Shown here in pieces: positions 1,834-44,622 of a stretch of 64,000 nucleotides of DNA; position 1 is the first letter of the stretch, and every line of letters starts with the position of its first letter. The notes beneath the pieces are model-generated. The model made no database searches. It saw only the letters and a list, made by a program, of their open reading frames with translations, and was not told the origin of the DNA. The stretch spans positions 40,697-104,696 of the forward strand of contig CAIJXH010000004.1 in the NCBI GenBank assembly GCA_903824595.1. The letters run 5' to 3'. The DNA is from an uncultured bacterium. GTDB lineage: Bacteria; Patescibacteriota; Minisyncoccia; Phycocordibacterales; UBA2100. A program made the translations under genes and the position numbers.

Positions 1834-3066
1834 ATGACAAAAAATACCGGGTGCGTCCTTATTATCGGCGCGGGCGGCGTGGGAAGCGTTGTCGCGCACA
1901 AATGCGCACAAAATAAAGATGTATTCACCAAGATTCACCTCGCAAGTCGCTCGATCGGCAAACCCAACGCAATCAAAAAAGACATCAAGAAACGCTGGGG
2001 CGTTTCCATCACCACGCACATCGTCGACGCCGACAAATCCAAGCAGGTCGCCGCACTCATTCGCAAGATAAAGCCCGCGCTCGTCATCAACGTTGCGCTT
2101 CCCTACCAAGACCTCGCCATCATGGATGCGTGTCTTGCAACTGGCGTGCACTACGTCGACACCGCCAATTACGAACCGCGCGATAAAGCAAAGTTCGAGT
2201 ACAAGTGGCAGTGGGCGTACCAGAACAAATTCAAAAAGAAAGGCATCATGGCAGTCTTGGGAGCCGGATTTGATCCTGGCGTAAGCAACGCGTACTGTGC
2301 ATACGTCTTGAAAAAACACTTTGATACGGTGCGTTTCGTCGACATTCTCGACGCCAATGCCGGCAGCCACGAGAAGGCGTTTGCGACCAATTTCAACCCA
2401 GAGATCAACATTCGCGAAGTTACCCAAACCGTACGCCACTGGGCAAACGGGAAATGGATTGAAACTCCCGCGGTGATGGATAAAGGTAGCGTACATTTTT
2501 CTTTCGACTATCCAATCGCCGGACCAAAAGAAAGTTACCTGCTCTACCATGAGGAGATGGAATCGCTCGTCAAACATCTTCCCGGACTGGAACGCATGCG
2601 TTTCTGGATGACCTTCTCCGAAAATTACCTCAACCACTTGCGCGTCATGGAAAACATTGGTATCTCGAGCATCAAGCCAATCGACTTCCAAGGTAAAAAA
2701 ATAGTGCCGATTGAATTCCTGAAAGCGATCCTCCCCGATCCAGCTTCGCTCGCCACCAAATACACCGGCAAAACGGTAATCGGCTGCATCGTCACTGGAG
2801 TGAAAGACGGAAAAGAGAGCACGAAATACATTTACAACGTCTGCGACCACGAGGAATCATTCAAAGAAGTCGGCTCACAGGCGATCTCCTACACCACCGG
2901 CGTACCCGCGATGTCGGCAGCACTGATGGTGATGAAAGGCATCTGGAGCGGCAAAGGAGTGTTCAACATCGAACAGCTCGATCCCGAACCATTCCTCGAA
3001 ACAGTATCCAAGAACGGACTCCCCTTCACCGTCGTCGATTACACGCCATTGCCGGAGAAGATATAG
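1834..3066 (+). CDS. Carboxynorspermidine/carboxyspermidine dehydrogenase (saccharopine-dehydrogenase-like, NAD(P)-binding).
   Basis: N-terminal Rossmann motif VLIIGAGGVGSVVAHK. ~410 aa, the size of the CANSDH family. Sits between polyamine decarboxylases. Confidence 0.75.
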   Translation: MTKNTGCVLIIGAGGVGSVVAHKCAQNKDVFTKIHLASRSIGKPNAIKKDIKKRWGVSITTHIVDADKSKQVAALIRKIKPALVINVALPYQDLAIMDACLATGVHYVDTANYEPRDKAKFEYKWQWAYQNKFKKKGIMAVLGAGFDPGVSNAYCAYVLKKHFDTVRFVDILDANAGSHEKAFATNFNPEINIREVTQTVRHWANGKWIETPAVMDKGSVHFSFDYPIAGPKESYLLYHEEMESLVKHLPGLERMRFWMTFSENYLNHLRVMENIGISSIKPIDFQGKKIVPIEFLKAILPDPASLATKYTGKTVIGCIVTGVKDGKESTKYIYNVCDHEESFKEVGSQAISYTTGVPAMSAALMVMKGIWSGKGVFNIEQLDPEPFLETVSKNGLPFTVVDYTPLPEKI

Positions 3067-3089: not shown

Positions 3090-3314
3090 ATGGAATTCCG
3101 CCGCTCACTCTTCTGGGACGTTGATCCCTCGACCATCGACGAGGAGAAACATGCGCGCTACATCATCGAGCGCATTCTCGATTTCGGCACCGACAAAGAA
3201 GCCCGGTGGATGTATCAGCGGTATCCGCACACCATCATTCGCGACGTACTGAATCATTCTCGCGTGCTGATTCCAAAGACACGAGCGTTATGGAACGAAC
3301 TAATTCCTCAATGA
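3090..3314 (+). CDS. Small conserved protein (LFWDVDPSTID...YIIERILDFG). Putative cognate antitoxin/partner of the downstream AbiEii-type nucleotidyltransferase.
   Basis: 74-aa ORF whose stop overlaps the next start (ATGA). The motif resembles small partners seen next to DUF1814/AbiEii genes; function inferred from context only. Confidence 0.45.
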   Translation: MEFRRSLFWDVDPSTIDEEKHARYIIERILDFGTDKEARWMYQRYPHTIIRDVLNHSRVLIPKTRALWNELIPQ

Positions 3315-3976
3315 CATTACATCTTGATGCACTGCCGGCAGCCACGCAACGCGCGTTTGAGTTTTTCTCCAACGCAAAGTGGTTAGCCGACGACACATGG
3401 TACCTTGCGGGTGGCACCGCACTCACCCTTCAGGTCGGACACCGTAGTTCTGAAGATCTTGATTTCTTCACGCAACATAAAGAATTTTCACAAACAAGCG
3501 TATTGAATCATCTGTCTGAGCCGGATTGGGTGACGAACGACATGTGGGAAGGAACAATCTACGGCGCATATAAACATGCAAAGGTGAGCTTTATCGCCTA
3601 TCCATTTTTCGTGCCGAAAGCGGAAAAAATAGCTCATGGCGCGCTTTCAATGCTATCCATGCGCGACATCGCCGTCATGAAAATTATTGCGACCAGTCAG
3701 CGCGGACGCAAACGCGATTTCCTCGACCTCTATTGGTATGCAAAAAACGCCGAGCCGCTCCTTGACATCATCCTTCGCCTGCCGGAACAGTATCCGACAG
3801 TCGCACACGACTATCAGCATATTCTCAAAAGCATGCTGTATTTCTCCGACGCCGACAACGACCCGATGCCCACCCTCTTCTTCAAAGCCGACTGGGACGA
3901 AATCAAATCCTTCTTCCGTCGCGAGATTCCTCCGATTGCGAAACGATTGATGGGATTAGAAGAAAACAACATATGA
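3311..3976 (+). CDS. Nucleotidyltransferase AbiEii/AbiGii toxin-family protein (type IV TA toxin-like).
   Basis: Motifs LAGGTALTLQVGHRSSEDLDFF (GGTAL...R.SEDLDF) typical of the DUF1814/AbiEii NTase fold. Start at MTLHL, overlapping the upstream stop; its stop overlaps the nspC start (ATGA). Confidence 0.6.
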   Translation: MTLHLDALPAATQRAFEFFSNAKWLADDTWYLAGGTALTLQVGHRSSEDLDFFTQHKEFSQTSVLNHLSEPDWVTNDMWEGTIYGAYKHAKVSFIAYPFFVPKAEKIAHGALSMLSMRDIAVMKIIATSQRGRKRDFLDLYWYAKNAEPLLDIILRLPEQYPTVAHDYQHILKSMLYFSDADNDPMPTLFFKADWDEIKSFFRREIPPIAKRLMGLEENNI

Positions 3977-5196
3977 GTATTCGTCCCGCGTCTCGCTTAA
4001 TTCCAGAGCACGTACCCACCCCCGCCTTCGTCATCGAAGAACATGTACTTCGACATAATCTTTCGATTTTGAAGCGTGTGCGGGAGGCAACGGGCTGCAA
4101 GATGTTCCAAGCGCTCAAGACGTGGGCGACGTGGGAGCTATTCCCCATCGTGCGCGAGTACCTCGACGGCACGGAGGTGAGCTCGCTCAACGAAGCGCGG
4201 CTCGGCTACGATGAATTCAACCACAACGTGCACATGTACGCGCCCGCGTACAAAGATGAGGAATTTGCCGACATTCTGAAATACTGCTCAACCATCATTT
4301 TCAACTCCTTTGGTCAGTGGAAGAAATTCAAGCCGCAGGTGGAAGCATTCGAGAAAGAGACAGGGCAAAAGCGCGAGTGCGGCTTGCGCATCAATCCCGA
4401 GCACACCGGAAAAAATGAGCATGGCGGCTTGTGGAGTCCGTGCGCACCCGGCTCGCGTCTTGGCATCCGCATCAGCGAGTTTGAAACAGCGCTTGCGGCA
4501 GATCCGCACGCACTCGACGGCATCAGCGGATTCCATTTCCACATCTTCTTCGACAAGCAGCTACCCGACCTCGCCGATGCACTGCCAGTGATTGAAGAAA
4601 AATTTGGGAAATATTTCGCAGAGATGCAGTGGATCAACTTTGGCGGCGGTCAGCAGATCACCAACGACGAGTACGACGTGGAAGGACTCATCACACTGAT
4701 TACTGAGTTTCAGAAAAAACACGGCGTTGTCGCCCACCTCGAACCGGGTGCCGCCACTGTAAAACTCGTCGGCGCACTAGTCGCTTCCGTGCTCGACATC
4801 GTGCATCGCGACGATGTTCCGTATAAAATCGCCGTGCTCGACATGTCGTTCAATGCGCACACGCCCGACTTCCTCCTCTCCCCCGATCTCGATATGCCGA
4901 TACGTGGTGCACGCATCGTGCGCACCGCTTCCGACATCACGCAGGACGAGCACGCCTACCAGCTCGCCGGAGGCACCTGTGTGACCGGCGACAAACTCGC
5001 ACAGTTCCACATCTTCGACCAGCCACTCAAGCACGGCGACCGTATCGTGATGGAAGACGGCATCCAATACAACATGGTACAGTGCACAATGTTCAACGGC
5101 GTCCAGCATCCCGCAATCTACTTTCTGAAGGAAACCGGCGAAATGCACTTGATTCGCCGCTTTACGTACGACGATTTCCGCGCGAGAATGGGCTGA
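3973..5196 (+). CDS. nspC: Carboxynorspermidine decarboxylase (NspC/CANSDC; PLP-dependent, Orn/DAP/Arg decarboxylase fold).
   Basis: ~407 aa. N-terminal PAFVIEEHVLRHNL and GGGQQ / HLEPGAA motifs of the fold III decarboxylases. Adjacent to CANSDH. Confidence 0.75.
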   Translation: MSIRPASRLIPEHVPTPAFVIEEHVLRHNLSILKRVREATGCKMFQALKTWATWELFPIVREYLDGTEVSSLNEARLGYDEFNHNVHMYAPAYKDEEFADILKYCSTIIFNSFGQWKKFKPQVEAFEKETGQKRECGLRINPEHTGKNEHGGLWSPCAPGSRLGIRISEFETALAADPHALDGISGFHFHIFFDKQLPDLADALPVIEEKFGKYFAEMQWINFGGGQQITNDEYDVEGLITLITEFQKKHGVVAHLEPGAATVKLVGALVASVLDIVHRDDVPYKIAVLDMSFNAHTPDFLLSPDLDMPIRGARIVRTASDITQDEHAYQLAGGTCVTGDKLAQFHIFDQPLKHGDRIVMEDGIQYNMVQCTMFNGVQHPAIYFLKETGEMHLIRRFTYDDFRARMG

Positions 5197-8806: not shown

Positions 8807-9850
8807 ATGCGGCGAGCTTTTTTGCTTGTGTCGATACTACTCGTATGCGGATCCGTCGTCCCATCCACGACGCACGCTTCGGCACTTTCCGACATCCTCG
8901 ACTCACTGCAAAAGAACATCCTTCCCATGCAATCGAGCACCTCATCGGATGGTAATTTGCAGACCATATCCGTTTTGAAACCTGCTTCCAACATCGACCC
9001 CGCAGCGACGCGCAACACGAGCACCGTTACCATTGTGGATGATTCGGCATTGCTGCCCGACGAAGGACCTGCGGGCACAATGGCAAGCATTGACGGATCG
9101 AGAGGCGGCACCATCAGCACATACACCGTGCGCACGGGCGATACCCTGTCGAGCATTGCGGCGATGTTCAAAATCCCCGTCAACACGATCCTCTGGGCAA
9201 ACGATCTCTCGCGGTCGTCATCGTTGCGCGTGGGTGAAACACTCACGATTCTCCCCATTCCTGGAGTGCCGTATACCGTCAAGAAGGGCGACACCATTGC
9301 GCGCATTGCCACGCGATACGGAGGTGATCCTGCTGAAATCATGAGCTACAACGGGATCGACGAAACCACGCTCGCCGTCGGCACACAGATCATCATTCCA
9401 GATGGCGAAGCACCCGCGACACCACCCAAACAAAATACGAAAGCCACGCGAAGCAACAATGAGCCTGCACACAACGTGGGACCAGCGGGCACGTTGACAC
9501 AGATTGGCTACTACATTCGCCCGATCGTTGGCGGAGTGAAGACGCAAGGCATTCACGGCTACAACGCGGTCGACCTCGCCGCTCCTATCGGCACACCTAT
9601 CCTTGCTTCTGCCGAAGGCGATGTGATCGTCGCAAAAGAAGGCGGGTGGAACGGAGGCTACGGCAGCTACATCGTCATCCAGCACGACAACGGCAGCCAG
9701 ACGCTCTATGGACACGCATCGGGCGTCGTTGTAAACAGTGGGCAGCACGTGCGGCAAGGACAAGTGATCGGCTATGTAGGATCGACAGGCAAATCGACAG
9801 GTTCGCATGTTCACTTCGAGATTCGCAACGGGATTAGGAATCCGTTCTAG
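8807..9850 (+). CDS. Secreted LysM-domain M23 family metallopeptidase (peptidoglycan hydrolase).
   Basis: Signal peptide MRRAFLLVSILLVCGS. Two LysM repeats (YTVRTGDTLSSIAAMF / YTVKKGDTIARIATRY). M23 catalytic motifs HGYNAVDLAAPIGTPI and GSTGKSTGSHVHFEI. Confidence 0.8.
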   Translation: MRRAFLLVSILLVCGSVVPSTTHASALSDILDSLQKNILPMQSSTSSDGNLQTISVLKPASNIDPAATRNTSTVTIVDDSALLPDEGPAGTMASIDGSRGGTISTYTVRTGDTLSSIAAMFKIPVNTILWANDLSRSSSLRVGETLTILPIPGVPYTVKKGDTIARIATRYGGDPAEIMSYNGIDETTLAVGTQIIIPDGEAPATPPKQNTKATRSNNEPAHNVGPAGTLTQIGYYIRPIVGGVKTQGIHGYNAVDLAAPIGTPILASAEGDVIVAKEGGWNGGYGSYIVIQHDNGSQTLYGHASGVVVNSGQHVRQGQVIGYVGSTGKSTGSHVHFEIRNGIRNPF

Positions 9851-9954
9851 CGTTCATGCGCTAAAGTACTGATTTTGTTGCCCAAACATATCTCGCTTGC
9901 TATGGTTGTCGCGGAGCGTTCTTTTGCTCTTTGACACCGTATGGGAGAAACGCG

Positions 9955-11457
9955 ATGATCGGGTTTACAAAAGATCGCACTACCATCGCCGTTGTCGGCG
10001 CACAGTGGGGCGATGAGGGCAAAGGGAAAATTGCGGACATACTCGCGAGAGACGCGCACATCGTCGCGCGAGGCACTGGAGGCAGCAATGCGGGACACAC
10101 CATCATTCACGAAGGAACTGCACACGTACTCCACCAGTTGCCATGCGGAATTCTCTACCCAAACACGTTGAGTGTTATCGGGAGAGGTGCGGCGGTAAAT
10201 CCACTCGCGCTGACGCGCGAGATCAATGCCGCCACAGACGCGGGCATGTCGTGCCACGGATTACGTATCTCAAACCATGCGCGATTAGTGACACCGATCG
10301 AGATATTGATCGACAGAATCACTGAAGCAGAGGGCAGCGCGATAGGGACGACAGGTCGCGGCATCGGTCCGACCTATACAGCGCACGTGGAACGCCGCGG
10401 ACTGTTCGTCAATGACACGCTCAACAAGGAGGAGCTGAAAAAGAAACTGCAACATTCGGTAGAGGCAGTGATGCCCTTCTTGCGAGCATTTCATCCTGGA
10501 ACTACAAGACGTATCCTTGGCGCCGACGACATGGAGAAAGGCGCATTCTACAAAGACCCAGACTCTATATTCAACATCGACGCGATTATTGATGTATATC
10601 GTGAATTCGCGCGGCGCTTCAGAGAAAGAATCGTTAATACGGACAGACTCATACAGTCCAACGTGGGGAAACAGAAAATACTGCTCGAAGGATCGCAAGG
10701 CATATTGCTTTCGATCGAGCATGGCACGTATCCATTCGTCACCTCGTCTGACAGTACGCTGCCCGGGCTTGCAGAAGGGGTCGGCATTCAGAGCAGAGAC
10801 GTTGATCACACCTATGTGGTAGCGAAAGCGCCCTACATGACTCGCGTCGGAGACGGTCCATTCCCCACCGAACTCGGCGGAAAGACCTCGGCACAGTGGT
10901 GCAAAAACAACACCAAAGAGCGAGAAATCGAGGAGTATCCCGAGCCCGATATCAATTCAGACGAAATGTTCGAGCGCGGCGTCGCCATACGCCGACTTGG
11001 TAACGAATATGGCTCTACGACGAAAAGACTTCGACGCATCGGATGGCTCGATATCCCTCTGTTGCATCATGCGCTCACGTGCGGCGGTGGATTTCAGAGC
11101 GGTCGCGCCAGCATAATACTTACCAAGCTCGACATGGGCGACACCATGGATGATGTGCGGCTATGCATTGCCTATCACTACGCTGGCAAAAAAGGATACG
11201 CCATAGGCAGCTCGCGCCTCCTCCCGGGAAAACGGATGTGCGTCGCACCTATGGATCAATACGCCCTCGCCAATTCAACACCACTCTATCGCGAGTGTCG
11301 TGGATGGAAATGTTCGTTGCGTGGCATAACCTCTGCCAATGATCTACCGCGCGCCCTGCTTGAATACATCGCGGCAATACAAGAATACGCAGGCGATGAC
11401 GTGAAGATCGATGCTATCTCTGTCGGCCCACGAGGACACGAGACAATCGCCCTATAA
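9955..11457 (+). CDS. purA: Adenylosuccinate synthetase.
   Basis: P-loop GAQWGDEGKGKI, GSNAGHT, TTGRGIGP motifs. Longer than typical PurA (~500 aa), so likely carries insertions. Confidence 0.85.
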   Translation: MIGFTKDRTTIAVVGAQWGDEGKGKIADILARDAHIVARGTGGSNAGHTIIHEGTAHVLHQLPCGILYPNTLSVIGRGAAVNPLALTREINAATDAGMSCHGLRISNHARLVTPIEILIDRITEAEGSAIGTTGRGIGPTYTAHVERRGLFVNDTLNKEELKKKLQHSVEAVMPFLRAFHPGTTRRILGADDMEKGAFYKDPDSIFNIDAIIDVYREFARRFRERIVNTDRLIQSNVGKQKILLEGSQGILLSIEHGTYPFVTSSDSTLPGLAEGVGIQSRDVDHTYVVAKAPYMTRVGDGPFPTELGGKTSAQWCKNNTKEREIEEYPEPDINSDEMFERGVAIRRLGNEYGSTTKRLRRIGWLDIPLLHHALTCGGGFQSGRASIILTKLDMGDTMDDVRLCIAYHYAGKKGYAIGSSRLLPGKRMCVAPMDQYALANSTPLYRECRGWKCSLRGITSANDLPRALLEYIAAIQEYAGDDVKIDAISVGPRGHETIAL

Positions 11458-11470
11458 CCAGTACACAAAA

Positions 11471-11500
11471 GCGGAGGACACAAACCTCCGCTTTTTCTTT
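11471..11500 (+). terminator. Intrinsic terminator after purA.
   Basis: GCGGAGG-acacaaa-CCTCCGC stem followed by TTTTTCTTT. Confidence 0.6.
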
Positions 11501-11534
11501 ACCATTCCCTCGCCCGATACTGAAGTGCTTCGAG
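11501..11534. repeat. Direct repeat copy A (33/34 nt). Duplicated 3' end of comM (encodes ...LEALQYRAREW*) delimiting an inserted segment.
   Basis: Sequence acCattccctcgcccgatactgaagtgcttcgag is identical (1 mismatch) to 12771..12804, which is the genuine comM 3' end. Confidence 0.8.
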
Positions 11535-11555
11535 CTGCGCCAATTGCATAATATT

Positions 11556-12686
11556 CTATTGCACAACATCTTCTCGCAAGAAATCGTCTGGAGTTACCAC
11601 TCGTGTGATCGCCTCGGGATAATATTTCAGGAACGTCGCAAAATTGACACTACCAGAAGTCAGCTTGCATTCGTAGGCACGCAACACACGACCATCCATT
11701 CGTATAAAATCGATTTCCTTCTTATCGCGCGTGCGCCAAAAATACGTCTTCGGCGGAAATGACACGAGAGTATCTCGTTTCATAAGCTCTATAAAGAATA
11801 GTGACTCAAATAGAATGCCGCGCTCCACGTCGTTTGTGCCACTCGAAAATCCGCCCACGAGTGCATTGCGTACGCCGAGATCCAAGAAATATACTTTGTA
11901 GGATTTCTTAAGTTCGTTGGCATAATTGCGCGCAAATGAATACACGCGCTTAATAACGAAGGACTGCTCCAAAAGCCGAATATATTTTTCCACTGTGACT
12001 TGCGTGATTCCAAGCTCTTTCGAGAGATCGTTGGTAGAAACCGTGCTTCCAATACGCATTGCCAGATGCGTGAGCAAATCTTCGAACGCTTTCGGATTGC
12101 GAATCGCCTCAAACGTAAAGACGTCTTTATACAAATAGTTCGTCGCAATGTTCTTAATCTCCTCCTGTTTTTCAAGAAAGGTGGGAGCTGTTACGACCGC
12201 AGGATACGAACCAAACGCCATAAGATCATCGAAAATTTTCTGGGTGATCTCACAAGCACGACGAATCTCGAGAAGCGACAATGGATACAATAAGTATTCC
12301 GAGGCACGGCCAGTCAATGGTTCTTTCACCTTATTGGCAAGATCAAACGCAGAAGAACCAGTCGCAATGATTTTTATATCAGGATATGTGTCATAGAATA
12401 TCTTTAATATCTTGCCTATATTTGTAATAGTTTGTGCTTCATCAAAGACCACAATTTTTTTGTCAGCTATAAGCTGCAAGAGCTTCTCTGGTTTACCAAG
12501 CGCGAAATGACGTCGGACGTCTGCATGTTCGCAATTGAAATATCCGCCACGGTCTCCGTATGGAACGAGTAGTTTTTTTGCAAGTGTTGTCTTGCCCGAC
12601 TGTCGCGGTCCTAAAATGATCACAATACCCTTCCCTTGAAGACGTTCTGTAATAGAGTTTTCTATTTCACGTTTGAAAATATGCAT
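11556..12686 (-). CDS. AAA-family ATPase with C-terminal DUF4143-like domain (ATP-binding protein often found as single-gene insertions).
   Basis: Walker A GPRQSGKTTLAK, Walker B IVVFDEAQ, C-terminal region typical of the DUF4143 ATPases. Lies between the two comM 3'-end repeats. Confidence 0.75.
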   Translation of the reverse strand: MHIFKREIENSITERLQGKGIVIILGPRQSGKTTLAKKLLVPYGDRGGYFNCEHADVRRHFALGKPEKLLQLIADKKIVVFDEAQTITNIGKILKIFYDTYPDIKIIATGSSAFDLANKVKEPLTGRASEYLLYPLSLLEIRRACEITQKIFDDLMAFGSYPAVVTAPTFLEKQEEIKNIATNYLYKDVFTFEAIRNPKAFEDLLTHLAMRIGSTVSTNDLSKELGITQVTVEKYIRLLEQSFVIKRVYSFARNYANELKKSYKVYFLDLGVRNALVGGFSSGTNDVERGILFESLFFIELMKRDTLVSFPPKTYFWRTRDKKEIDFIRMDGRVLRAYECKLTSGSVNFATFLKYYPEAITRVVTPDDFLREDVVQ

Positions 12687-12721
12687 ATTTCAACAAAAAC
12701 AACAATTTATGACTATACTCA

Positions 12722-12750
12722 TATATTGCTCTATCATCTATTTTTGTCAA
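12722..12750 (-). promoter_or_regulatory. Putative sigma70-like promoter for the AAA ATPase gene (-35 TTGACA, 17-nt spacer, -10 AATATA).
   Basis: Read on the minus strand: cTTGACAaaaatagatgatagagcAATATAtg, ~35 nt upstream of the ATG. Confidence 0.25.
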
Positions 12751-12768
12751 GCACTGTACTGTGCGTAA

Positions 12769-14313
12769 TTACAATTCCCTCGCCCGATACTGAAGTGCTT
12801 CGAGCATGTGCGCGGGCTCGATGGTGTCGGACGCGGCGAGATCGGCGACAGTACGCGCGAGTTTGATGGTGCGATGATATCCGCGTGCCGAAAGCTTCAT
12901 GGTGCGCGCCGCCTGCTGGAGTGTTTCTTCTGCCTTCCGCGACAGATTGGCAAGAGATTCGATATGTTTTGCTCTCATGTCGGCGTTGGTGGAAATGCCG
13001 GGAGACGACGCAAAGCGCGCTCGCTGACGCTCGCGCGCGCCTGCAACAGCGGCGCGCGCCGCATGCGTCTCTCCTCCTTTGCCCTTTGCATCCGCTTTGA
13101 GCGACTCGGGTGGCATCTCGCTCACATGTACCCACATGTCTATGCGGTCGGCGACAGGTCCTGAAATCTTGCGGCGATATTTTTCGATCGCATGGGGCAT
13201 GCAGCGGCAACGTGGTGTATGGGCAAATCCGCACGGACACGGATTGAGAGCAGCAATCAACATGAAGCTCGCGGGAAATATCGCGGAGCCCTTGGCGCGT
13301 GAAATGGATACAACGCGATCTTCGAGCGGCTCGCGCAACGCGTTGACCACATCGCGATGAAATTCCGGGAACTCGTCGCAAAAAAGCACTCCTCGATGTG
13401 CGAGCGTCGCTTCGCCCGGACGAATCCCCGACGATCCGCCGCCGATGAGCGACGCATAGGACGACGTGTGATGCGGAGAGCGAAAAGGAGGACGAAAGAT
13501 CGGCGCGCCCGAGAGGTTGCCAGAAAGCGAATGAATAGTCGTCACCTCGATCATTTCATCCTCAACAAGATCGGGAAGAATAGATGCAGCGGCGCGCGCG
13601 AGCAACGTCTTCCCCGTACCGGGCGGTCCGTAGAGCGCAATGTTGTGTCCGCCCGCGGCTGCGATGATCATGCCGCGTTTAGCGCTCCCTTGACCGCGAA
13701 TGTCATCGAAGGCGGTGTCGTCGAGCACACCGCGCACGGATGATTGCTTTGGCGCGTACTCTTCGTGTTCGCCTCCGAGCAACGAGAGCAATTGCTTGAG
13801 TGAAGAAACGGGATGAATACGAATGGTGGAGATGAGCGATGCTTCTTCGTAGTTATCTTCGGGAATGTAGAGATCGGTGAATCCCGCCTCGCGCGCGGCA
13901 CTCGAGATCGAGAGCGCGCCAAGAATTGGGCGCACGGTGCCATCAAGCCCCAACTCTCCTGCAAAAAGCTTGCCCGACGGATCAAACGCAACCTGCTCCG
14001 ACGCGAGCAGAAAAGCCAGCGCGAGCGACACGTCAAACACCGCGCCTTCTTTTTTGAGTGCAGCCGGCGCGAGCGAGAGGACGATTTTTTTATTGCTTCG
14101 TTTGGGCGATTCTAAATCATCGGTGTTCTTTATCGCCGCCGCAATGCGGTCTTTCGCTTCCTCAACCGATTTGTCAGGCAATCCTACGATCGTGAAGGCG
14201 TGCAATCCTTTCACAATATCGCACTCAACCGACACGACCGCCGCCTTGGGAAGCATCGGCTGCGCGCCATACACCCGCGCAAATCCCGACTCTATTTTCT
14301 GCTTCGCGTTCAC
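12769..14313 (-). CDS. comM: Mg-chelatase-like AAA+ ATPase ComM/YifB (competence-associated).
   Basis: N-terminal Lon-like domain, Walker A GPPGTGKT, FCDEFPEF, Cys cluster CPCG...C, C-terminal helix ...LEALQYRAREL. Confidence 0.85.
   Translation of the reverse strand: MNAKQKIESGFARVYGAQPMLPKAAVVSVECDIVKGLHAFTIVGLPDKSVEEAKDRIAAAIKNTDDLESPKRSNKKIVLSLAPAALKKEGAVFDVSLALAFLLASEQVAFDPSGKLFAGELGLDGTVRPILGALSISSAAREAGFTDLYIPEDNYEEASLISTIRIHPVSSLKQLLSLLGGEHEEYAPKQSSVRGVLDDTAFDDIRGQGSAKRGMIIAAAGGHNIALYGPPGTGKTLLARAAASILPDLVEDEMIEVTTIHSLSGNLSGAPIFRPPFRSPHHTSSYASLIGGGSSGIRPGEATLAHRGVLFCDEFPEFHRDVVNALREPLEDRVVSISRAKGSAIFPASFMLIAALNPCPCGFAHTPRCRCMPHAIEKYRRKISGPVADRIDMWVHVSEMPPESLKADAKGKGGETHAARAAVAGARERQRARFASSPGISTNADMRAKHIESLANLSRKAEETLQQAARTMKLSARGYHRTIKLARTVADLAASDTIEPAHMLEALQYRAREL
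12771..12804. repeat. Direct repeat copy B: the genuine 3' end of comM.
   Basis: Matches 11501..11534. Confidence 0.8.
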
Positions 14314-14334
14314 GCAAAGTATTGTACTACACGG

Positions 14335-14694
14335 TTACGCATGCGCCACGCACGTACGCGCGGCGGGATTGGCTTCGAGACGCTCGGTGGCGATTGGTTC
14401 GCCGCCCACTTCGCACACACCATAGGTGCCATTCTCAATTTTCTTGAGCGCGTCATTCACATCACCGCGACGCATTTCCAACTCTTCTACAAGTGGAACG
14501 TTGATCATCAATTCTTCTATGTTGTCGGCAGCGTCTGTCGGGTCAGCTTCTCCACCAGACACTCCGTGTATCGAACCTTGCCAATCGCCATTTTTCCGCG
14601 ACCCGTGTTGCATCAAATCTTCGTCGAGCGTATCGCGTTCCGTCAAAAGGCGCGCGCGGAACGCTTCTATATGTGCATGAGTACGTGTATTCAT
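14335..14694 (-). CDS. DksA/TraR-family protein with degenerate zinc finger.
   Basis: C-terminal GTYGVCEVGGEPIATERLEANPAARTC resembles the DksA zinc-finger region (only 2 Cys); coiled-coil N-terminal part. Start at MNTRTH. Confidence 0.5.
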   Translation of the reverse strand: MNTRTHAHIEAFRARLLTERDTLDEDLMQHGSRKNGDWQGSIHGVSGGEADPTDAADNIEELMINVPLVEELEMRRGDVNDALKKIENGTYGVCEVGGEPIATERLEANPAARTCVAHA

Positions 14695-14727
14695 ATGCTC
14701 ATATGATACCAGACTCGCGAACATCGT

Positions 14728-15990
14728 CTACAGCGCCTTCCCCACTCGCAAACGCGCCAATACTTCTTTGAGAGAATACGGGCTCTCACCTATGATCAGC
14801 AGGTGTTTTGTAGGAAACACGTAGTACAGCACGATGTCTCCAGAATCATCTTTGAGAGTGCGCGCATCATAATTTTCAAGCACGACATCACCAAAGCGAC
14901 GTTTTTCTGGCAGTCCGTTACTTCCTACAACTTGATCGGGCACGCCCGCACTTGCAGGCTGAAGATCGGCATTGATGGTTTGTTCCCACGCGAGCATACC
15001 CGCAAACGCACGCTCATACGATGTTACCGGCACCACAAACACCAACGCATTGCGATCGGTCGCATGAATGCCAAAGAAGAAGTCGTCGCCAAGCGCTCGC
15101 AAAAGATCGTCTGGAACATGGGTATCCAATGCCGTGATAAATTCTGAAAACGTCGCTGGTCGCGCCGCATTTTTACCAGAAACATCGTCTTCGGGAGACA
15201 CGGTGGGGACAATACGAACCAGTGATCCAAGCGATATGTTTGGATGTTGTCGCGCCTGCATCAGCATGTTCTTGAGATCAAATCCCGATCGATGTTGAAT
15301 AGGTAGCACCTCCGAGCGTTCGGCAAACATGAGTGAGCCATCCGACGGCGGAGGCGCTACATACAGCGACTGTATAATCCCCACACCCACAAGCAGCAGG
15401 ACGATCACACACACAATACCCATGACTTTCCACGCGATTCCCTTTTTCCCCTGTGGCACCTCGAGAGGGACTGATTGTTTTTTCTCACTATTGCGATCTT
15501 CTTCGAGTGTCGCGGCGCGCACGAGAGAAATTTTCTGTTCTTTGATGACCATCTGCAAATCATCCTTGAGCGTGTGGAGCGGGACAACCGATGAGTGATC
15601 TTGAGCGCTGCTGGCTTGTTCAACTGAATGCGCTTCATGCGCGATTGCCGTCGTACCATCTTCTGCTATCGCATGCTGATGCGGCTTTGTTGCGCCTAGT
15701 CGTGTATCGTAGACGACCATATCGCCCTGCGTGCCGACATCATCCGATACCGCACGCCTCTCTGGAAGCCGCGTCTCGCCAACCACACGTTTCATCTCGT
15801 CTTTTTCAGAGATCACGATCGGCGCGTCTATATTGACCACGTCGTTAGATTCTACGCCTAAAAGATTTTTCGCCGGTGTGTCTTGCATGATCGTGTCCTC
15901 CACCGCTATCGTCTGGGGTGAGCCCTTTGCGAGCAGCCCATTCAGGATCAGCAGCTTTGATAGAGAGATTATACCTCCCTTTTTCATCAA
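14728..15990 (-). CDS. Hypothetical membrane protein (one TM helix GIVCVIVLLLVGVGII). The track start overlaps the pnp 3' end, so the true start is probably internal (e.g. ~15795).
   Basis: Long ORF with a single TM. No recognisable motif. Confidence 0.4.
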   Translation of the reverse strand: MMKKGGIISLSKLLILNGLLAKGSPQTIAVEDTIMQDTPAKNLLGVESNDVVNIDAPIVISEKDEMKRVVGETRLPERRAVSDDVGTQGDMVVYDTRLGATKPHQHAIAEDGTTAIAHEAHSVEQASSAQDHSSVVPLHTLKDDLQMVIKEQKISLVRAATLEEDRNSEKKQSVPLEVPQGKKGIAWKVMGIVCVIVLLLVGVGIIQSLYVAPPPSDGSLMFAERSEVLPIQHRSGFDLKNMLMQARQHPNISLGSLVRIVPTVSPEDDVSGKNAARPATFSEFITALDTHVPDDLLRALGDDFFFGIHATDRNALVFVVPVTSYERAFAGMLAWEQTINADLQPASAGVPDQVVGSNGLPEKRRFGDVVLENYDARTLKDDSGDIVLYYVFPTKHLLIIGESPYSLKEVLARLRVGKAL

Positions 15991-40257: not shown

Positions 40258-40276
40258 CCGCAGGTTTAACCTGCGG
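40258..40276. repeat. REP-like palindrome copy 1 (CCGCAGGTTTAACCTGCGG).
   Basis: Exact 19-nt hairpin-forming repeat, 13 nt upstream of the HuH transposase start. Confidence 0.8.
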
Positions 40277-40289
40277 AATTGGTGTTAGA

Positions 40290-40985
40290 ATGGATAGCAT
40301 GTCTACCCGACCACCCATGGCGATTGGCGAATGGTACCACTGCTACACTCGCGGGGTCGACAAGCGAAAAGTATTTGAATCGCAGGAAGATTATGATCGT
40401 TTTCTGGTGCATCTTTACGTCGCCAATGGAACGCGAAATATTCGCGTATCCGATATGCGCGACACGCGACTTAAGAGGGTTTTGGAGGATGAATCGCTCG
40501 ATCGAGGTCATCCGATTGTTGAAATTGGAGCGTACTCGCTCATGCCAACCCATGTTCATTTTCTGTTGCGGGAAATCAGAGACGGCGGTATTGCGCTTTT
40601 CATGCAAAAGACCTTCACCGGGTATACGATGTATTTCAATAACAAGAACGAGCGCACTGGGGCGCTTTTTTCCGGCACGTTCAAATCGAAACACGTAAAC
40701 GAAGATCGGTATCTGAAACAAGTCATTCCCTACATACTCCTCAACCCCGTGGAATTGTTCTATCCCGACTGGAAGAACGGCATCGGCGATATTGATTCCG
40801 TGGAGAAAAAATTGCTCGCGTACCCCTACTCAAGTTTGCAAGAGTTTCAGAGTGTTAGCATCGAACGCCCGCATAAAAAAATCGTGAACGGCTCCTTTGA
40901 AATGTATTACGAGCAACTCCCCACACTCTCACAAATGCTCAGTGACGCGCAAGAGTATTATCGGGAACGCCGTCCGCAGGTTTAA
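40290..40985 (+). mobile_element. IS200/IS605-family HuH (Y1) transposase of the REP-associated (RAYT, TnpA_REP) type.
   Basis: EWYHCYTRG...YSLMPTHVHFLL (HuH motif) and C-terminal Tyr-containing helix. 231 aa. Flanked by identical REP palindromes; its stop codon TAA is the loop of REP copy 2. Confidence 0.75.
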
Positions 40986-40993
40986 CCTGCGGA
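40975..40993. repeat. REP-like palindrome copy 2.
   Basis: Exact repeat; encodes the transposase C-terminus RPQV* (stop lies in the hairpin loop). Confidence 0.8.
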
Positions 40994-41071
40994 AGCTGAA
41001 AACTCTCCATGTTTTACTATCTATCATAAAACTACGACCTGGAACTTTCGTTCCAGGTCGCCTCCAATCTC

Positions 41072-41674
41072 TCAATCAGAGAGAGGAGCTAGTTTCCTCA
41101 ACACATCGAGGTCGTCTTCAATATCCCATCCGTGTTCACGCAGCCCTTCCGCGATTCGGATGACCAACTCGTGATCCATCAATTCAGACAACCCCGAGAA
41201 CGACAGAATGATCCACTCGGATATTCGACCCTCACCATGACGCGCGCACACGGTAATTGCACCGGCATATTTTTCAGTCGCCCGATCCCGCGATTGACAG
41301 GATGCTCGATGTTGCTCATTGAAAAACCCTCCATATAGGCGCAGAGCTTTTTCCGTCGCAAATCGGATATATTTTTCCATTTTGCCCCGGTTTACTCCAT
41401 CAAAACAACATGCGAACAAGGGCTCTGGGGTAGTGATCGAACCTCGATTGCATGGCACTGGGGTCACATGGAATACCTGCAAACAACCACCCTTACCTTG
41501 TTCTGTCTCGTTTCCTGCGACCAATTTAACCAGAGCTTGCTCGGCAACGTCTCGTACAAGACGAGACCGTTCTTCAGTGAGGCGCATATCCATCTCCTCC
41601 AAATCACAAAATGCCCAACCTCCACAGCTGGAGATTTCTCCAGCAACAATATCGCATAACGGCACATGGGTCAA
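41072..41674 (-). CDS. Hypothetical protein located between REP copies 2 and 3.
   Basis: 200-aa ORF, no recognisable motif. Confidence 0.35.
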   Translation of the reverse strand: MTHVPLCDIVAGEISSCGGWAFCDLEEMDMRLTEERSRLVRDVAEQALVKLVAGNETEQGKGGCLQVFHVTPVPCNRGSITTPEPLFACCFDGVNRGKMEKYIRFATEKALRLYGGFFNEQHRASCQSRDRATEKYAGAITVCARHGEGRISEWIILSFSGLSELMDHELVIRIAEGLREHGWDIEDDLDVLRKLAPLSD

Positions 41675-41687
41675 AACTACGAATCCT

Positions 41688-41706
41688 TTTCCCGCAGGTT
41701 TAACCT
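41688..41706. repeat. REP-like palindrome copy 3.
   Basis: Exact repeat. Confidence 0.8.
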
Positions 41707-41721
41707 GCGGATTTTGTTCAA

Positions 41722-41841
41722 CTTACTACCACTCAATCTCCTTCTGCCCGTGCTCTTTCAGGTACGCATTCGCCTTTGAAAAGGGTTTGGATCCGAAGAA
41801 ACCGGAGTGGGCGGAAAAGGGCGACGGGTGCGGCGATTCGA
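41722..41841 (-). pseudogene. Diverged duplicate of the ung 3' end (fragment encoding ...[39 protein letters not shown]).
   Basis: ~65 nt almost identical (ggtttggatccgaagaaaccggagtgggcggaaaagggcgacgg(g/a)tgcggcgattcgatgacga) to 43362..43425 inside ung, then ~55 nt of diverged but alignable sequence including a stop codon. Confidence 0.65.
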
Positions 41842-41855
41842 TGACGAAAGGAGTG

Positions 41856-43196
41856 TCAGTAGATCGGGACACAATTCGAGTCAAATTGAGATAAGTCGAC
41901 AGTCTGATTATTCCAGATCTTCAAGTCACCAGATCTCGGAAGACAGCAGTTACGACGCATAGTATTCGATGGATTGCTCTCCACGCGTGCCCGCTCTCGA
42001 CAACTTACTTGCCACTGGATGGAACCGACAAAATGGGCTAAGCAGTAATGCTCACCAGCTTGCCAATCGGACCAGGTAGCGTTTGCAAGATTATTTTCTT
42101 TAAATATACAGAGTGTTGGATCATTATTCTGAGTTGCTTTAAATGTTCGATTGCGAGAGACACATCTTATATAGTACCTCTGTGCATTCTTCATATTCAC
42201 CTCCATATCCTCGTTATCCATGTTATCAGCATCAATAATCGATACCGCAGGGTTGTTTTGAGGTACATCCTGTACTTGATCCCACCCATCTTTCATTATT
42301 ATCGTCGCCGATGGGATAACTTCGAGACCCGTCACGCCAGGATAAAGCGCTTCACAATTTGACTGCCCCGATTGTGCAGCAGCCTGTGATTTTGAATCCT
42401 TACAATTGAGATTATATTGATTGTCTCGCAGCGTACAGTCTTTTAGATTTTGTTCATACTGCGGATCCGCCTGATCAAGACACTGGGTCAACTGCCTGCG
42501 CCCTTCCTGAACCACCACGCCCTCCGTATCTCCACCCGAAAGATAGCATAGTGATGGCAGATGTATCTTCGTAGCAATGGCAAATATGAGATCTCGTCCC
42601 CCCATTACAGGTGCGAAAGGCCCCACGATCACTACGATCATGAGTGCGGTCAGGACGGACGCGTATTGTGTGCGTCGTATCGGATACTGCGCGCCACGTA
42701 TCACTCTCGATACTAGTATCGAAAGACCCGCAAAAAGCGCTATCAGCAAGCAAGCGGCCATGTTTCTAAAAACAAATACTACTTCACCGGCAGCAGCCAT
42801 TGCTGCAATGAGAGGAAATGGAAGTCTAGTGCCGCTGCCAAGACGTACATCTACATCTGCGAGGAGGAGGAATAAACATGAAGACAATACCAGCACCAAT
42901 AGAGTTAAGAAAACTGAAACCAATCCCCCAACTGAATAAACAAGTGCATCCGATACCGGACGGGAAGTATCAGGAGATATAGAGCGTGCGACGAGGAATG
43001 GTCCGCAGAGCGCCAATATGACTAAACCAAGATAATAAACTTCCTCCCCTATTACCCGATATAAGACAAGGTGTGCGATTGTATACACTGGCAAGAAAAC
43101 AAAGATAAAAAAGAAAGTTAGCGCGCTGAAAAAAAGTATGTGTCTATATTTTTTTTTCATCAGCACAAATATAGCACGGGTGCATGCACGAGACAA
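41856..43196 (-). CDS. Polytopic membrane protein with Cys-rich C-terminal extracellular domain (hypothetical). Cargo gene between the ung 3' fragment and ung.
   Basis: 446-aa ORF, ~6 N-terminal TM helices, C-terminal domain with ~10 Cys. Confidence 0.45.
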
Positions 43197-43252
43197 ACAT
43201 GACTCCCCTGTCGCCGCGCGACGATGAATCCCGCTTTCGTCCGCAGGTCGTC

Positions 43253-43271
43253 CGCAGGTTTAACCTGCGGT
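43253..43271. repeat. REP-like palindrome copy 4 (preceded by a partial tandem half-copy gtccgcaggtc).
   Basis: Exact repeat, 30 nt downstream of the ung stop. Confidence 0.8.
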
Positions 43272-43300
43272 TTTTGATCCGATACTTGAATGTGCAAAAG

Positions 43301-43966
43301 CTACCACTCTATGGGCGCTTTCCCGTGTTTGCCGAGGTCGGTATTTGCTCTGGAGAACGGTTTGGATCCGAAGAAACCGGAGTGGGCGGAAAAGGGCGAC
43401 GGATGCGGCGATTCGATGACGAGATGGCGCGCGCGGTCGATGTGCGCGCCTTTGTGCCTCGCGTAGTTGCCCCAGAGGATGAAGACGATATGTTCGCGCT
43501 CTTCGGCAAGTTTTTGTATCGCCGCGTCGGTGAATTGTTCCCAGCCTTTGCCTTGGTGCGAGCAGGCTACGCCGGCTCGCACCGTGAGCGTCGCATTCAG
43601 AAGCAGCACACCCTGCTTCGCCCAGCGCGACAGATCGGTATCGCGACTCACCGGATGCCCGAGGTCGGATGCTAGTTCCTTGAATATATTTTGAAGCGAT
43701 GGTGGCGTCGCTACACCCGAACGCACCGCAAAACACAGCCCGTTCGCCTGTCCTTCTCCATGATACGGATCTTGCCCGAGAATCACCACTTTCACCTCAT
43801 CAAACGGACACTCATCAAATGCACGGAACACCTGCTTGGGCGGCGGAAACACTCGCGCACTCTTGTATTCCTCACGCACGAAACTCGCAAGTGATTGAAA
43901 GTACGACTGTTCGAACTCTGCCGCCAGTCTCTCTCTCCATCCTCCACTTATTTTTACTTCTACCAT
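43301..43966 (-). CDS. ung: Uracil-DNA glycosylase, family 1.
   Basis: GQDPYH (water-activating loop), [11 protein letters not shown] (Leu-intercalation/His motif). Start at [10 protein letters not shown]. Confidence 0.85.
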
Positions 43967-44031
43967 CGTATCATCGTACGACACTCGACAAATTTTGCCA
44001 TGCCAATACACCAATGCTACACTCCCCGTAT

Positions 44032-44622
44032 ATGAACACCACAGCACAAATGCTCGTGCCGATGGTCGTCGAGAAGACGTCTATGGGCGAACGGGCGTAC
44101 GATATTTATTCGCGTTTGCTCAAGGAGCGCATTGTCTTTCTCGGCGGCCCCATCGACAGCGACGTCGCCAACCTCGTCGTTGCACAGCTCTTATTCCTCG
44201 CCAGCGAAGACCCTAAGAAAGATATTTCGTTCTACATAAATTCCCCGGGCGGACACGTCTCGGCAGGACTTGCCATTCTCGACACTATGAATCACATCCA
44301 GCCCGCAGTTTCTACGGTATGCGTTGGCATTGCCGCTTCTATGGGTGCCGTGTTGCTTTCTGCGGGCGAAAAAGGTAAGCGATTTGTGTTGCCCAATGCC
44401 GAAGTGATGATCCACCAACCATCGGGCGGCGCGGAAGGACAGGCGACCGATATCGAAATAACCGCCAAGCACATCATCGCCACACGCGCCCGTCTCAACA
44501 AAATCCTTGCAAAAAACACATCCCAGAAACTCGACAAGATAGAACAAGACGTTGATCGCGACTTTTTCATGACTGCCGAAGAGGCAGTTACATACGGCAT
44601 TGTGGATAGCGTGCTCGTATAA
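44032..44622 (+). CDS. clpP: ATP-dependent Clp protease proteolytic subunit.
   Basis: [20 protein letters not shown], catalytic Ser in GIAASMGA, His in MIHQP. Confidence 0.9.

Follow-up and report, generated by a model that had tools for sequence, protein, structure and literature searches.

An ATPase-nuclease gene inserted between duplicated ends of comM in a patescibacterial genome

How does a gene come to lie directly behind comM and yet leave comM intact? The question is raised by a 64-kb stretch of DNA from an uncultured bacterium (contig CAIJXH010000004.1), which we call the window and to whose coordinates all positions refer. Here, a gene for an ATPase with AAA_14 and DUF4143 domains separates comM from the convergent purA, and the end of comM occurs a second time on the far side of the ATPase gene. 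Sequence comparisons support the view that a single foreign gene was inserted as a minimal unit where comM ends, with comM kept intact by the repeat. Homologous genes at unrelated loci are flanked by copies of other host gene ends. We think it probable that insertion occurs without a recombinase and with a long target duplication, through recombination or repair by the host on DNA from outside, with selection filtering the outcomes.

The insert between comM and purA

A 31-mer from the end of comM has exactly two copies in the window (11504-11534 and 12774-12804), where zero are expected, and none of 100 shuffled sequences reproduces even a pair. The exact match is 32 nt long (11504-11535 and 12774-12805). 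If one mismatch is allowed, the repeat extends to 37 nt (36 of 37 positions identical), with a TAA stop codon inside both copies (Table 1). These copies lie 1270 bp apart from start to start, with 1233 bp between them. (Beyond the 37 nt there is an extra TGCGC after a 3-bp indel, which may be chance or microhomology at the junction.) The repeat is not dispersed: with up to three mismatches tolerated, these are the only two copies within the window.

The copy that is attached to comM is the normal gene end. Of 120 comM orthologues, 50 end in ...EALQYRAREL, others end in REI or REM, and none ends in REW. We take the attached copy to be the normal end because it has the consensus REL, while the REW of the distal copy is absent from all of these orthologues. 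The distal copy would be a duplicate with one later base change, or else an odd original end.

The insert is compositionally foreign. Its GC content is 42.3%, as compared to 57.9% for comM and 54.1% for purA, and the GC content at third codon positions (GC3) shows the same contrast, with 45% versus 59-62%. Also, comparing comM loci in relatives, as the original prediction had proposed, places the ATPase gene behind comM in 0 of 42 related genomes, all of which keep the synteny of orf420, dksA, and comM. (In the window, Pfam identifies a DksA-type zinc-finger gene upstream of comM.) In these relatives, comM is followed by a variable gap and then by a convergent M23 peptidase gene. Orthologous comM sites at 69-83% identity lack the insert, and the nearest other comM, which is 83% identical, has different downstream genes. 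In several relatives, the M23 peptidase gene directly follows comM (loci L001-L025 were compared). The purA of the window is unusually long (508 aa) and is 28% identical to a purA-like gene at the matching place in L025. This clade thus has a variable gap between comM and the M23 gene, irrespective of the ATPase.

The insertion point lies between the comM stop codon and a terminator hairpin. This hairpin directly abuts the distal repeat copy and its mini-ORF (open reading frame), and it now stands downstream of the ATPase gene and the vestigial repeat. It folds with free energies of -17.2 and -20.8 kcal/mol (z of -6.6 and -5.9), and none of 200 shuffled sequences folds as well. We infer that at the empty site the comM stop codon was joined directly to the A-tract and stem of the shared terminator, exactly where the cassette now sits. 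The sequence would have been ...GGAATTGTAA joined directly to AGAAAAAGCGGAGG....

Upstream of the ATPase gene, reading of the sequence finds a promoter-like pair (TTGACA at 12750-12745, a 17-nt spacer, and AATATA at 12727-12722). Within the 82 nt before the ATPase start there is also an imperfect palindrome, TATGAGTATAGTCATA, at 12723-12708, followed by AATTGTTG. A scan for consensus promoters and terminators listed neither the promoter-like site nor the hairpin, of which the latter was confirmed by folding. An Rfam search of positions 9000-15000 gave no match.

Much of the original prediction holds up. Its 31-bp repeat, at 11504..11534 and at the end of comM, is present in exactly those two copies in the window; Pfam agrees with the identities that it gave to comM, purA, and the DUF4143-type ATPase; and the vestigial mini-ORF that it placed after the purA terminator does abut the hairpin. 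Its view of the insertion as minimal (one gene, no integrase, and the comM frame preserved) is supported by the low GC content, the 42 relatives without the gene, and the consensus comM end.

Table 1. Features at the insertion site, in window coordinates.
Feature	Position	Strand	Description
Inserted cassette	11536..12768	-	1233 bp, GC 42.3%; putative promoter/operator region of 82 nt, ATPase ORF, and 20 nt of 3' flank
ATPase gene	11556..12686	-	376 aa; AAA_14 and DUF4143 (Pfam)
Cassette-borne upstream region	12687..12768	-	promoter-like site and palindrome, from sequence reading; putative function
comM-proximal repeat copy	12769..12805	-	last 34 coding nt of comM and TAA stop; encodes ...LEALQYRAREL and the stop
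Distal vestigial copy of comM 3' end	11499..11535	-	36/37 identical; T-to-G makes the final Leu a Trp (REW and the stop)
Dead mini-ORF holding the distal copy	11499-11549	-	17 codons, MQLAQLEALQYRAREW and the stop
Bidirectional intrinsic-terminator hairpin	11467..11495	both	by folding; originally common to purA and comM
comM/yifB	12769..14313	-	514 aa, intact; Pfam Mg_chelatase 4.9e-79, ChlI, Mg_chelatase_C
purA (adenylosuccinate synthetase)	9931..11457	+	4.3e-120; convergent with comM, on the other side of the insertion site

The same gene family at other gene ends

The ATPase protein matches the PADLOC family PDC-S01 (PDLC04789) over residues 4-370 of 376 (3.7e-117). Pfam finds DUF4143 with 118.7 bits (cut-off 28.1) and AAA_14 with 99.7 bits (cut-off 27). 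The protein has a Walker A motif (GPRQSGKT), a Walker B motif (VVFDE), a central winged helix, and a C-terminal PD-(D/E)XK motif (D326 ... E339-x-K341); the Walker A and B residues and the C-terminal D...ExK are invariant across 24 homologues. An AlphaFold model with a predicted local distance difference test (pLDDT) score of 78 resembles AAA+, winged helix-turn-helix (wHTH), and VRR-NUC-like folds, while a sequence search against solved structures gave P-loop noise only. DUF4143 corresponds to COG1373 and was placed in the PD-(D/E)XK superfamily (PMC3424549). PDC-S01 is a very common single-gene candidate defence system, an ATPase with a PD-(D/E)XK domain, that was identified through "guilt-by-embedding" and whose anti-phage activity is unvalidated (PMC12988326). 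Among the defence candidates of prokaryotes, it reportedly ranks fourth in frequency. By its domains, then, the inserted gene encodes a candidate anti-phage defence protein of the PDC-S01 type.

The closest relatives of the ATPase, at 76-80% identity, never adjoin comM. They lie behind a UDG-family gene (P0004, 78% identity), beside an xer-like recombinase gene (P0008, 77%), beside a gene with a prephenate-dehydratase domain (P0011, 76%), in an array with SNF2 and a second ATPase (P0003, 80%), and near HicAB (P0007, 77%). Direct repeats again flank several of these relatives, and what is duplicated is the end of the host gene next door.

To put numbers on this, we sampled 80 metagenomic loci with ATPase homologues at 51-78% identity and aligned the upstream flank to the downstream flank of each. 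Control comparisons, in inverted orientation or across loci, mostly scored 31 or less, whereas direct orientation gave scores of 47-237 for 20 loci and for the window. When flanks of 450 nt were compared, direct repeats with a Smith-Waterman (SW) score of at least 45 flanked 19 of 75 ATPase ORFs, as compared to 7 of the 546 other ORFs that were 200 aa or longer (Fisher test, P = 1.4e-13; odds ratio 26).

The flanking repeats of the family range from 24 to 232 bp in length and from 76 to 99% in identity. Of the 22 repeat-bounded loci (the window included), 15 have copies that are spaced 1227-1370 bp apart from start to start. The 22 repeats are unrelated to each other, except for a group from xer-like 3' ends; their sharing of k-mers is at the level of shuffled sequences, and there is no common core. 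What they copy is the ends of host genes. Some 13 of them derive from 3' ends, where the outer edge mostly falls no more than about 5 nt from the stop codon, and another five or so derive from 5' ends. Nucleotide homology between cassettes, which begins some 40-170 nt before the ATG and ends near the stop codon, independently gives a unit of about 1.25-1.3 kb, in agreement with the limits defined by the repeats. The 3' flank of the cassette mostly ends between -15 and +35 nt from the stop codon and has no conserved sequence. Conserved termini are absent from the junctions, and there are no terminal inverted repeats (TIRs), with scores like those of shuffled controls in all 22 cassettes.

One pair of loci captures the filled and the empty state. 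In L068, the stop codon of an Elp3 gene is followed by the cassette and then by a 70-bp duplicate of the end of Elp3 (69/70 identical). In the orthologous locus L143, which is 78% identical, Elp3 is followed by a single copy of the target, a terminator hairpin, and the same downstream genes. The geometry matches that of the window because the insertion is between stop codon and terminator and the preceding coding sequence is duplicated. (There was no same-strain empty site for L068, as no Elp3 variant closer than 82% was found; the orthologous site in L143 is the only one.)

The cassettes also share a regulatory feature, which is a palindromic or direct-repeat motif, operator-like, that overlaps a promoter-like site shortly before the ATPase start (seen in L077, L082, L083, L096, L100, L111, L116, L118, L128, and L130 and in the window). 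In one subgroup, the motif is ACAATTTGC, about 11 nt, then GCAATTTGTTATAAT. The window's subgroup has a short palindrome instead (such as TATGAGTATAGTCATA), then AATTGTTG. This arrangement suggests that the winged helix of the ATPase may act on the operator-like motif to regulate its own gene.

Relatives of the ATPase in annotated replicons that are plasmid-borne are merely 24-40% identical, and no relatives were found in viral contigs. Many homologues are on contigs of 1.2-2.5 kb, or about the size of the cassette, which is expected if assemblies break at a repeated or polymorphic element, although short contigs are usual in that collection. The literature that we searched contains no report of PDC-S01 mobility, and as far as it shows, the recurrent repeat-flanked layout across this family is unreported.

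Conserved gene ends act as landing pads, and for more than one kind of cargo. At the 3' end of comM, the cargo is the ATPase in the window and a GH20 glycosidase in a Bacteroidaceae genome (L022). In that metagenome-assembled genome (MAG), at 9392-11307, a GH20 beta-hexosaminidase gene (9536-11188) directly follows the comM stop, and 109 bp of the 3' end of comM are duplicated (9392-9500 and 11199-11307, 93% identical, both ending at TAA). The architecture and the gene end are the same as in the window; the cargo and the phylum are unrelated. In L045, 132 nt of the 3' end of fusA are duplicated (9095-9226 and 11011-11142, about 75% identical, with differences mostly at third codon positions), and a Phd/ParE toxin-antitoxin (TA) pair and a Fic gene lie between the copies. 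The junction of rpsG and fusA in this locus is interrupted by HicAB, a UDG gene, and the ATPase cassette. As the same gene ends take GH20, Phd/ParE with Fic, and (see below) a 446-aa ORF, a nuclease cargo is not strictly required.

The window itself has a second site of this kind. The 3' end of a UDG-family gene (43301-44047, minus strand), together with its terminator hairpin (43252-43422), recurs at 41692-41847; about 70 nt of the repeat are near-identical, and the diverged tail after them still encodes ...KPFSKAN...IEW and a stop. The repeat brackets a 446-aa ORF without a Pfam match (41856-43196). A 19-nt palindrome, CCGCAGGTTTAACCTGCGG, has four copies in the window (at 40258, 40974, 41692, and 43252) and no others. 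Between UDG and rpsL, these copies set apart three ORFs: one with a weak IS200-like Y1 match (40290-40985), a 200-aa ORF (41072-41674), and the 446-aa ORF. Judging by this layout, 40258-43422 looks like a small cassette array that could have arisen by repeated insertion at one gene end.

Another recurrent target is the last ~35 codons of an xer-like tyrosine recombinase gene (L146 2041-5295, L059 4832-7123, and L118 3347-4805), which encode ...LLGHANIxTTQVYTHVTDKHLREVHKAFHGKRRG and a stop. In L146, three copies of the segment separate two ATPase genes that are 29% identical, giving a tandem array, integron-like in its layout, where the recombinase gene ends.

Finally, an orphan AbiEii-type toxin gene in the window (3206-3976, Pfam 5.4e-17), between a saccharopine-dehydrogenase-like gene (1834-3066) and a decarboxylase gene (3973-5196), looks like another inserted TA or defence gene. 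It has no flanking repeat scoring 40 or more.

How the cassette may have been inserted

We propose that the 1233-bp segment is a mobile single-gene cassette, with its own promoter and operator and a gene of the PDC-S01 type, and that it entered a Kaiserbacteria-like (Patescibacteria) genome between the comM stop codon and the terminator hairpin common to purA. The last 37 bp of comM would have been duplicated on both sides of the insert, and because of this duplication, comM kept its complete frame and purA its terminator. There would be no dedicated integrase or att site, with the repeat simply a copy of the local target. Instead, the insertion would proceed via host recombination or repair of externally acquired DNA, in an event that might be guided by short homology or microhomology, might be Campbell-like, or might be a template switch at a hairpin-flanked gene end. 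In compact genomes, only the events that regenerate the flanking genes would survive. Later, the repeat-flanked unit could be lost precisely or could pass among lineages by ordinary homologous recombination. The predicted junction of the excision circle is ...CAATTGGCGCA + one 37-bp copy + TTACGCACAG....

The repeats give two kinds of hints about how the duplication might be made. First, some long repeats are near-identical (69/70, 87/89, and 123/126). These are most simply explained as in-situ duplications made at insertion, either by staggered breaks with fill-in or by a template switch during replication, with exit at the hairpin and re-entry upstream. Second, in the older repeat pairs, 101 of 163 mismatches are in one codon phase, as compared to 74.5 if the mismatches were uniform and 85.6 if one copy had decayed neutrally (95th percentile 94). 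We rejected the decayed-duplicate model for these pairs because the observed count exceeds that range. Some of the vestigial copies still encode a recognisable protein end. Given the codon-phase mismatches and these coding-like vestiges, at least part of the diverged pairs seem to come from recombination with a diverged functional allele: homologous recombination may have carried the filled allele from one lineage to another, or DNA with a foreign version of the gene end may have been integrated Campbell-style.

Several observations weigh against our proposal or complicate it. For the window, no same-species empty site turned up: look-ups with the exact proteins (the ATPase, the DksA-like protein, and purA) gave filled contigs of this same strain (L043, L044, L138, and L139) or nothing, and a search for comM homologues gave no variant between 100% and 83% identity. 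So, the state before insertion is deduced from orthologues, since all of the same-species contigs are filled and the nearest comM is 83% identical. One mechanism may not cover both the near-identical and the diverged repeats, and the pointers to the step that would create the duplication conflict, some towards in-situ duplication and others towards recombination with an allele. The tight and near-constant limits of the cassette at more than 15 sites are hard to square with passive capture of random fragments. The 3' end of the xer-like gene was hit by four events, with similar inner boundaries in L059 and L146, and the 3' end of UDG was used with the ATPase in L045 and with the unrelated 446-aa ORF in the window; such reuse argues for some preference for site or homology, which an entirely random process would not predict. 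Also, four distant plasmid-borne relatives (from Rhizobium, Thermus, Treponema, and Trichlorobacter) lack flanking repeats.

An alternative that we consider possible, if rather unlikely, is that the ATPase-nuclease of the cassette mobilises itself: the winged helix would bind the operator, the nuclease would make staggered cuts in the target at a variable distance and perhaps excise its own gene, and the host would fill in the gaps. At over 15 independent sites, the unit is minimal and near-constant (promoter and ORF, with 1.23-1.37 kb separating the repeats), which fits this idea, but the cassettes have no conserved ends for a protein to recognise. Similarly, the PD-(D/E)XK residues are intact and invariant, and the near-identical long repeats point to in-situ duplication, but a hydrolytic nuclease is incapable of strand transfer. 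Flanking repeats are about 20-fold more common around the ATPase genes than around other genes, which is an unfair control because these are mostly core genes that never moved. Breakage of DNA by the cargo was proposed by Furuta et al. for restriction-modification (RM) systems (PMC2853133). On the other hand, the same layout surrounds cargo that is not a nuclease (GH20 behind comM in L022, Phd/ParE and Fic behind fusA in L045, and the 446-aa ORF behind UDG in the window), and the distant plasmid-borne family members have no repeats. We find it rather unlikely that PDC-S01 genes are autonomous one-gene mobile elements whose own protein would drive excision or insertion at the ends of conserved host genes, in place of a transposase or recombinase.

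A second alternative, close to the site-specific integration with an att core in the comM C-terminus that was originally predicted, is that a trans-acting tyrosine or serine recombinase recombined two copies of an att core, one within the 3' end of comM and one on a circular cassette, and that the element supplied a replacement end for comM. We judge this very unlikely. The layout does resemble attL and attR at a conserved gene's 3' end, with copies that agree exactly over a 32-bp block and differ at the edges only; but repeats at more than 20 sites around one cassette family are unrelated to the comM repeat and to each other and share no core, and their lengths range from 24 to 232 bp. The repeats in L059 and at UDG in the window show an identical block and then a diverged, coding-like tail, like surrogate gene ends, and the xer-like 3' end, beside a recombinase gene, was used repeatedly with similar boundaries. 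But the nearest relatives of the ATPase are at other genes, and none of 42 comM loci carries the cassette. Also, the search for a recombinase that the original prediction had suggested came back empty when run on the window: tblastn with two xer-like proteins and Pfam on about 35 ORFs found no tyrosine or serine recombinase and no DDE transposase, and the only ORF of the insert has no recombinase or transposase domain. (The sole hint of a mobility gene in the window is a weak match to an IS200-type Y1 transposase at 40290-40985.) So, of the original interpretation, the foreign one-gene insertion behind comM is supported, and the site-specific att integration is not.

We rejected the att-core model in general since the repeats share no k-mer beyond the level of shuffled sequences and each is a copy of local host sequence. 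We also rejected a DNA transposon or insertion sequence (IS), given that there is no transposase domain, TIR scores are at the level of shuffled sequences, the termini are not conserved, and the duplications are 24-232 bp long. An integron cassette was rejected given the lack of an attC-type structure at the 3' flank, the lack of an integrase in the window, and the empty Rfam result.

Lastly, it is highly improbable that there was no insertion and that the ATPase is ancestral at this locus, with the repeat as a local duplication or chance similarity: the lack of a same-species empty site would fit, but none of 100 shuffled sequences has the 31-mer twice, the composition of the insert is foreign, the gene is absent here in all of the relatives, and the same repeat-bracketed layout surrounds homologues at unrelated loci, one of which has an orthologous empty site.

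Consequences and comparison with known systems

The insertion would have several effects on the locus. comM is intact but would now be without its own terminator, and its transcription probably reads into the cassette. The ATPase gene would use the old shared hairpin, and purA would keep its terminator. The two 37-bp copies would permit precise loss of the cassette by recombination.

Patescibacteria are a naturally competent phylum that is poor in classical mobile elements. Insertion of this kind is a possible route by which these streamlined bacteria acquire and shed defence genes while their closely packed core genes stay undisturbed. More broadly, insertion with long target duplication was described 25 years ago for RM genes (reportedly by Nobusato et al. 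in 2000). A second, very different nuclease-type defence gene now shows this signature, in about a quarter of the sampled PDC-S01 copies, at more than 20 unrelated targets, and with a minimal unit of 1.25 kb. The recurrent cassettes amount to many natural replicates for the study of the mechanism. If PDC-S01 genes did prove to mobilise themselves, then the long-sought mechanism of insertion with long target duplication would be revealed, and a common candidate defence gene would be, at least in part, a selfish mobile nuclease. There is also a practical warning, which is that finding a long direct repeat where a conserved gene ends does not in itself count as evidence of an integrase-type att site.

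Indeed, the islands that integrases insert at the 3' ends of conserved genes (tRNA, tmRNA, and protein genes, including comM-associated islands) look similar: they too are inserted at the 3' end, have direct repeats at the junctions, and preserve the frame. They differ in that the cassette has no integrase and carries only about 1.2 kb of cargo, and its repeat is derived from the target, with a sequence specific to each site and no common att core.

IS elements with long and variable direct repeats, such as IS1634, are alike in making long target duplications of variable length. However, they have a DDE transposase and terminal inverted repeats, and the cassette has neither. (A Mycoplasma transposon that makes long, variable direct repeats is cited in PMC2853133.) Integron cassettes are also single-gene units, and the PDC-S01 cassettes sometimes form small arrays split by repeated sequence beside a tyrosine recombinase gene (as in L146). 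However, the cassettes described here have no attC-like conserved end, they have their own promoter, the spacer is the 3' end of a host gene, and in the window there is no adjacent integrase.

As for PDC-S01 itself, the window's gene agrees with it in the full-length match to the hidden Markov model (HMM), in the AAA_14 and DUF4143 domains, in the fusion of an ATPase to a PD-(D/E)XK domain, and in being a single gene; PDC-S01 genes are often found beside TA, Fic, and other defence-type genes. What differs is the discrete mobile cassette with long target duplications, which the papers that we found do not describe for PDC-S01.

The closest parallel is the "insertion with long target duplication" of Furuta, Abe, and Kobayashi (2010), who described it for restriction systems of Types I-IV, including a lone gene for a Type IV nuclease (mcrA), mostly in naturally competent species, with an unknown mechanism and with repeats of about 45 to more than 400 bp (PMC2853133). 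Natural competence and homologous recombination of DNA have been shown in Saccharibacteria, which are cultivated Patescibacteria, and com genes are conserved across phyla of the Candidate Phyla Radiation, or CPR (PMC10633639). Furuta et al. looked for repeats longer than 30 bp, and the repeat in the window is 37 bp (36/37 identical). They looked for inserts shorter than 20 kb without mobility genes, and this one has 1233 bp, one ORF, and no TIRs. They also looked for repeats that are not dispersed, and ours has its two copies within the window. Finally, they looked for an empty site in a related genome to which both repeat copies align. For the cassette family, this is L143, as against the filled L068, with synteny on both sides; for the window, there are the orthologous sites without the insert (69-83% comM identity), while all of the same-species contigs are filled.

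In both the RM cases and ours, a small nuclease defence unit without a transposase or integrase is flanked by repeats of more than 30 bp that are copies of a single-copy target. In both, the repeats vary in length and often cover the 3' end of a host gene, the GC content is deviant, and most of the cases come from naturally competent lineages. There are three differences. For the instance in the window, a same-species empty site was not found. Second, a single gene family is recurrent here (in about 25% of the sampled copies), with small arrays at the same target. Third, the cargo is one gene for an ATPase with wHTH and PD-(D/E)XK domains in Patescibacteria (CPR), rather than an RM system. With a PDC-S01 gene as its cargo and a CPR bacterium as its host, the insert behind comM adds a new member to this known kind of gene mobility.

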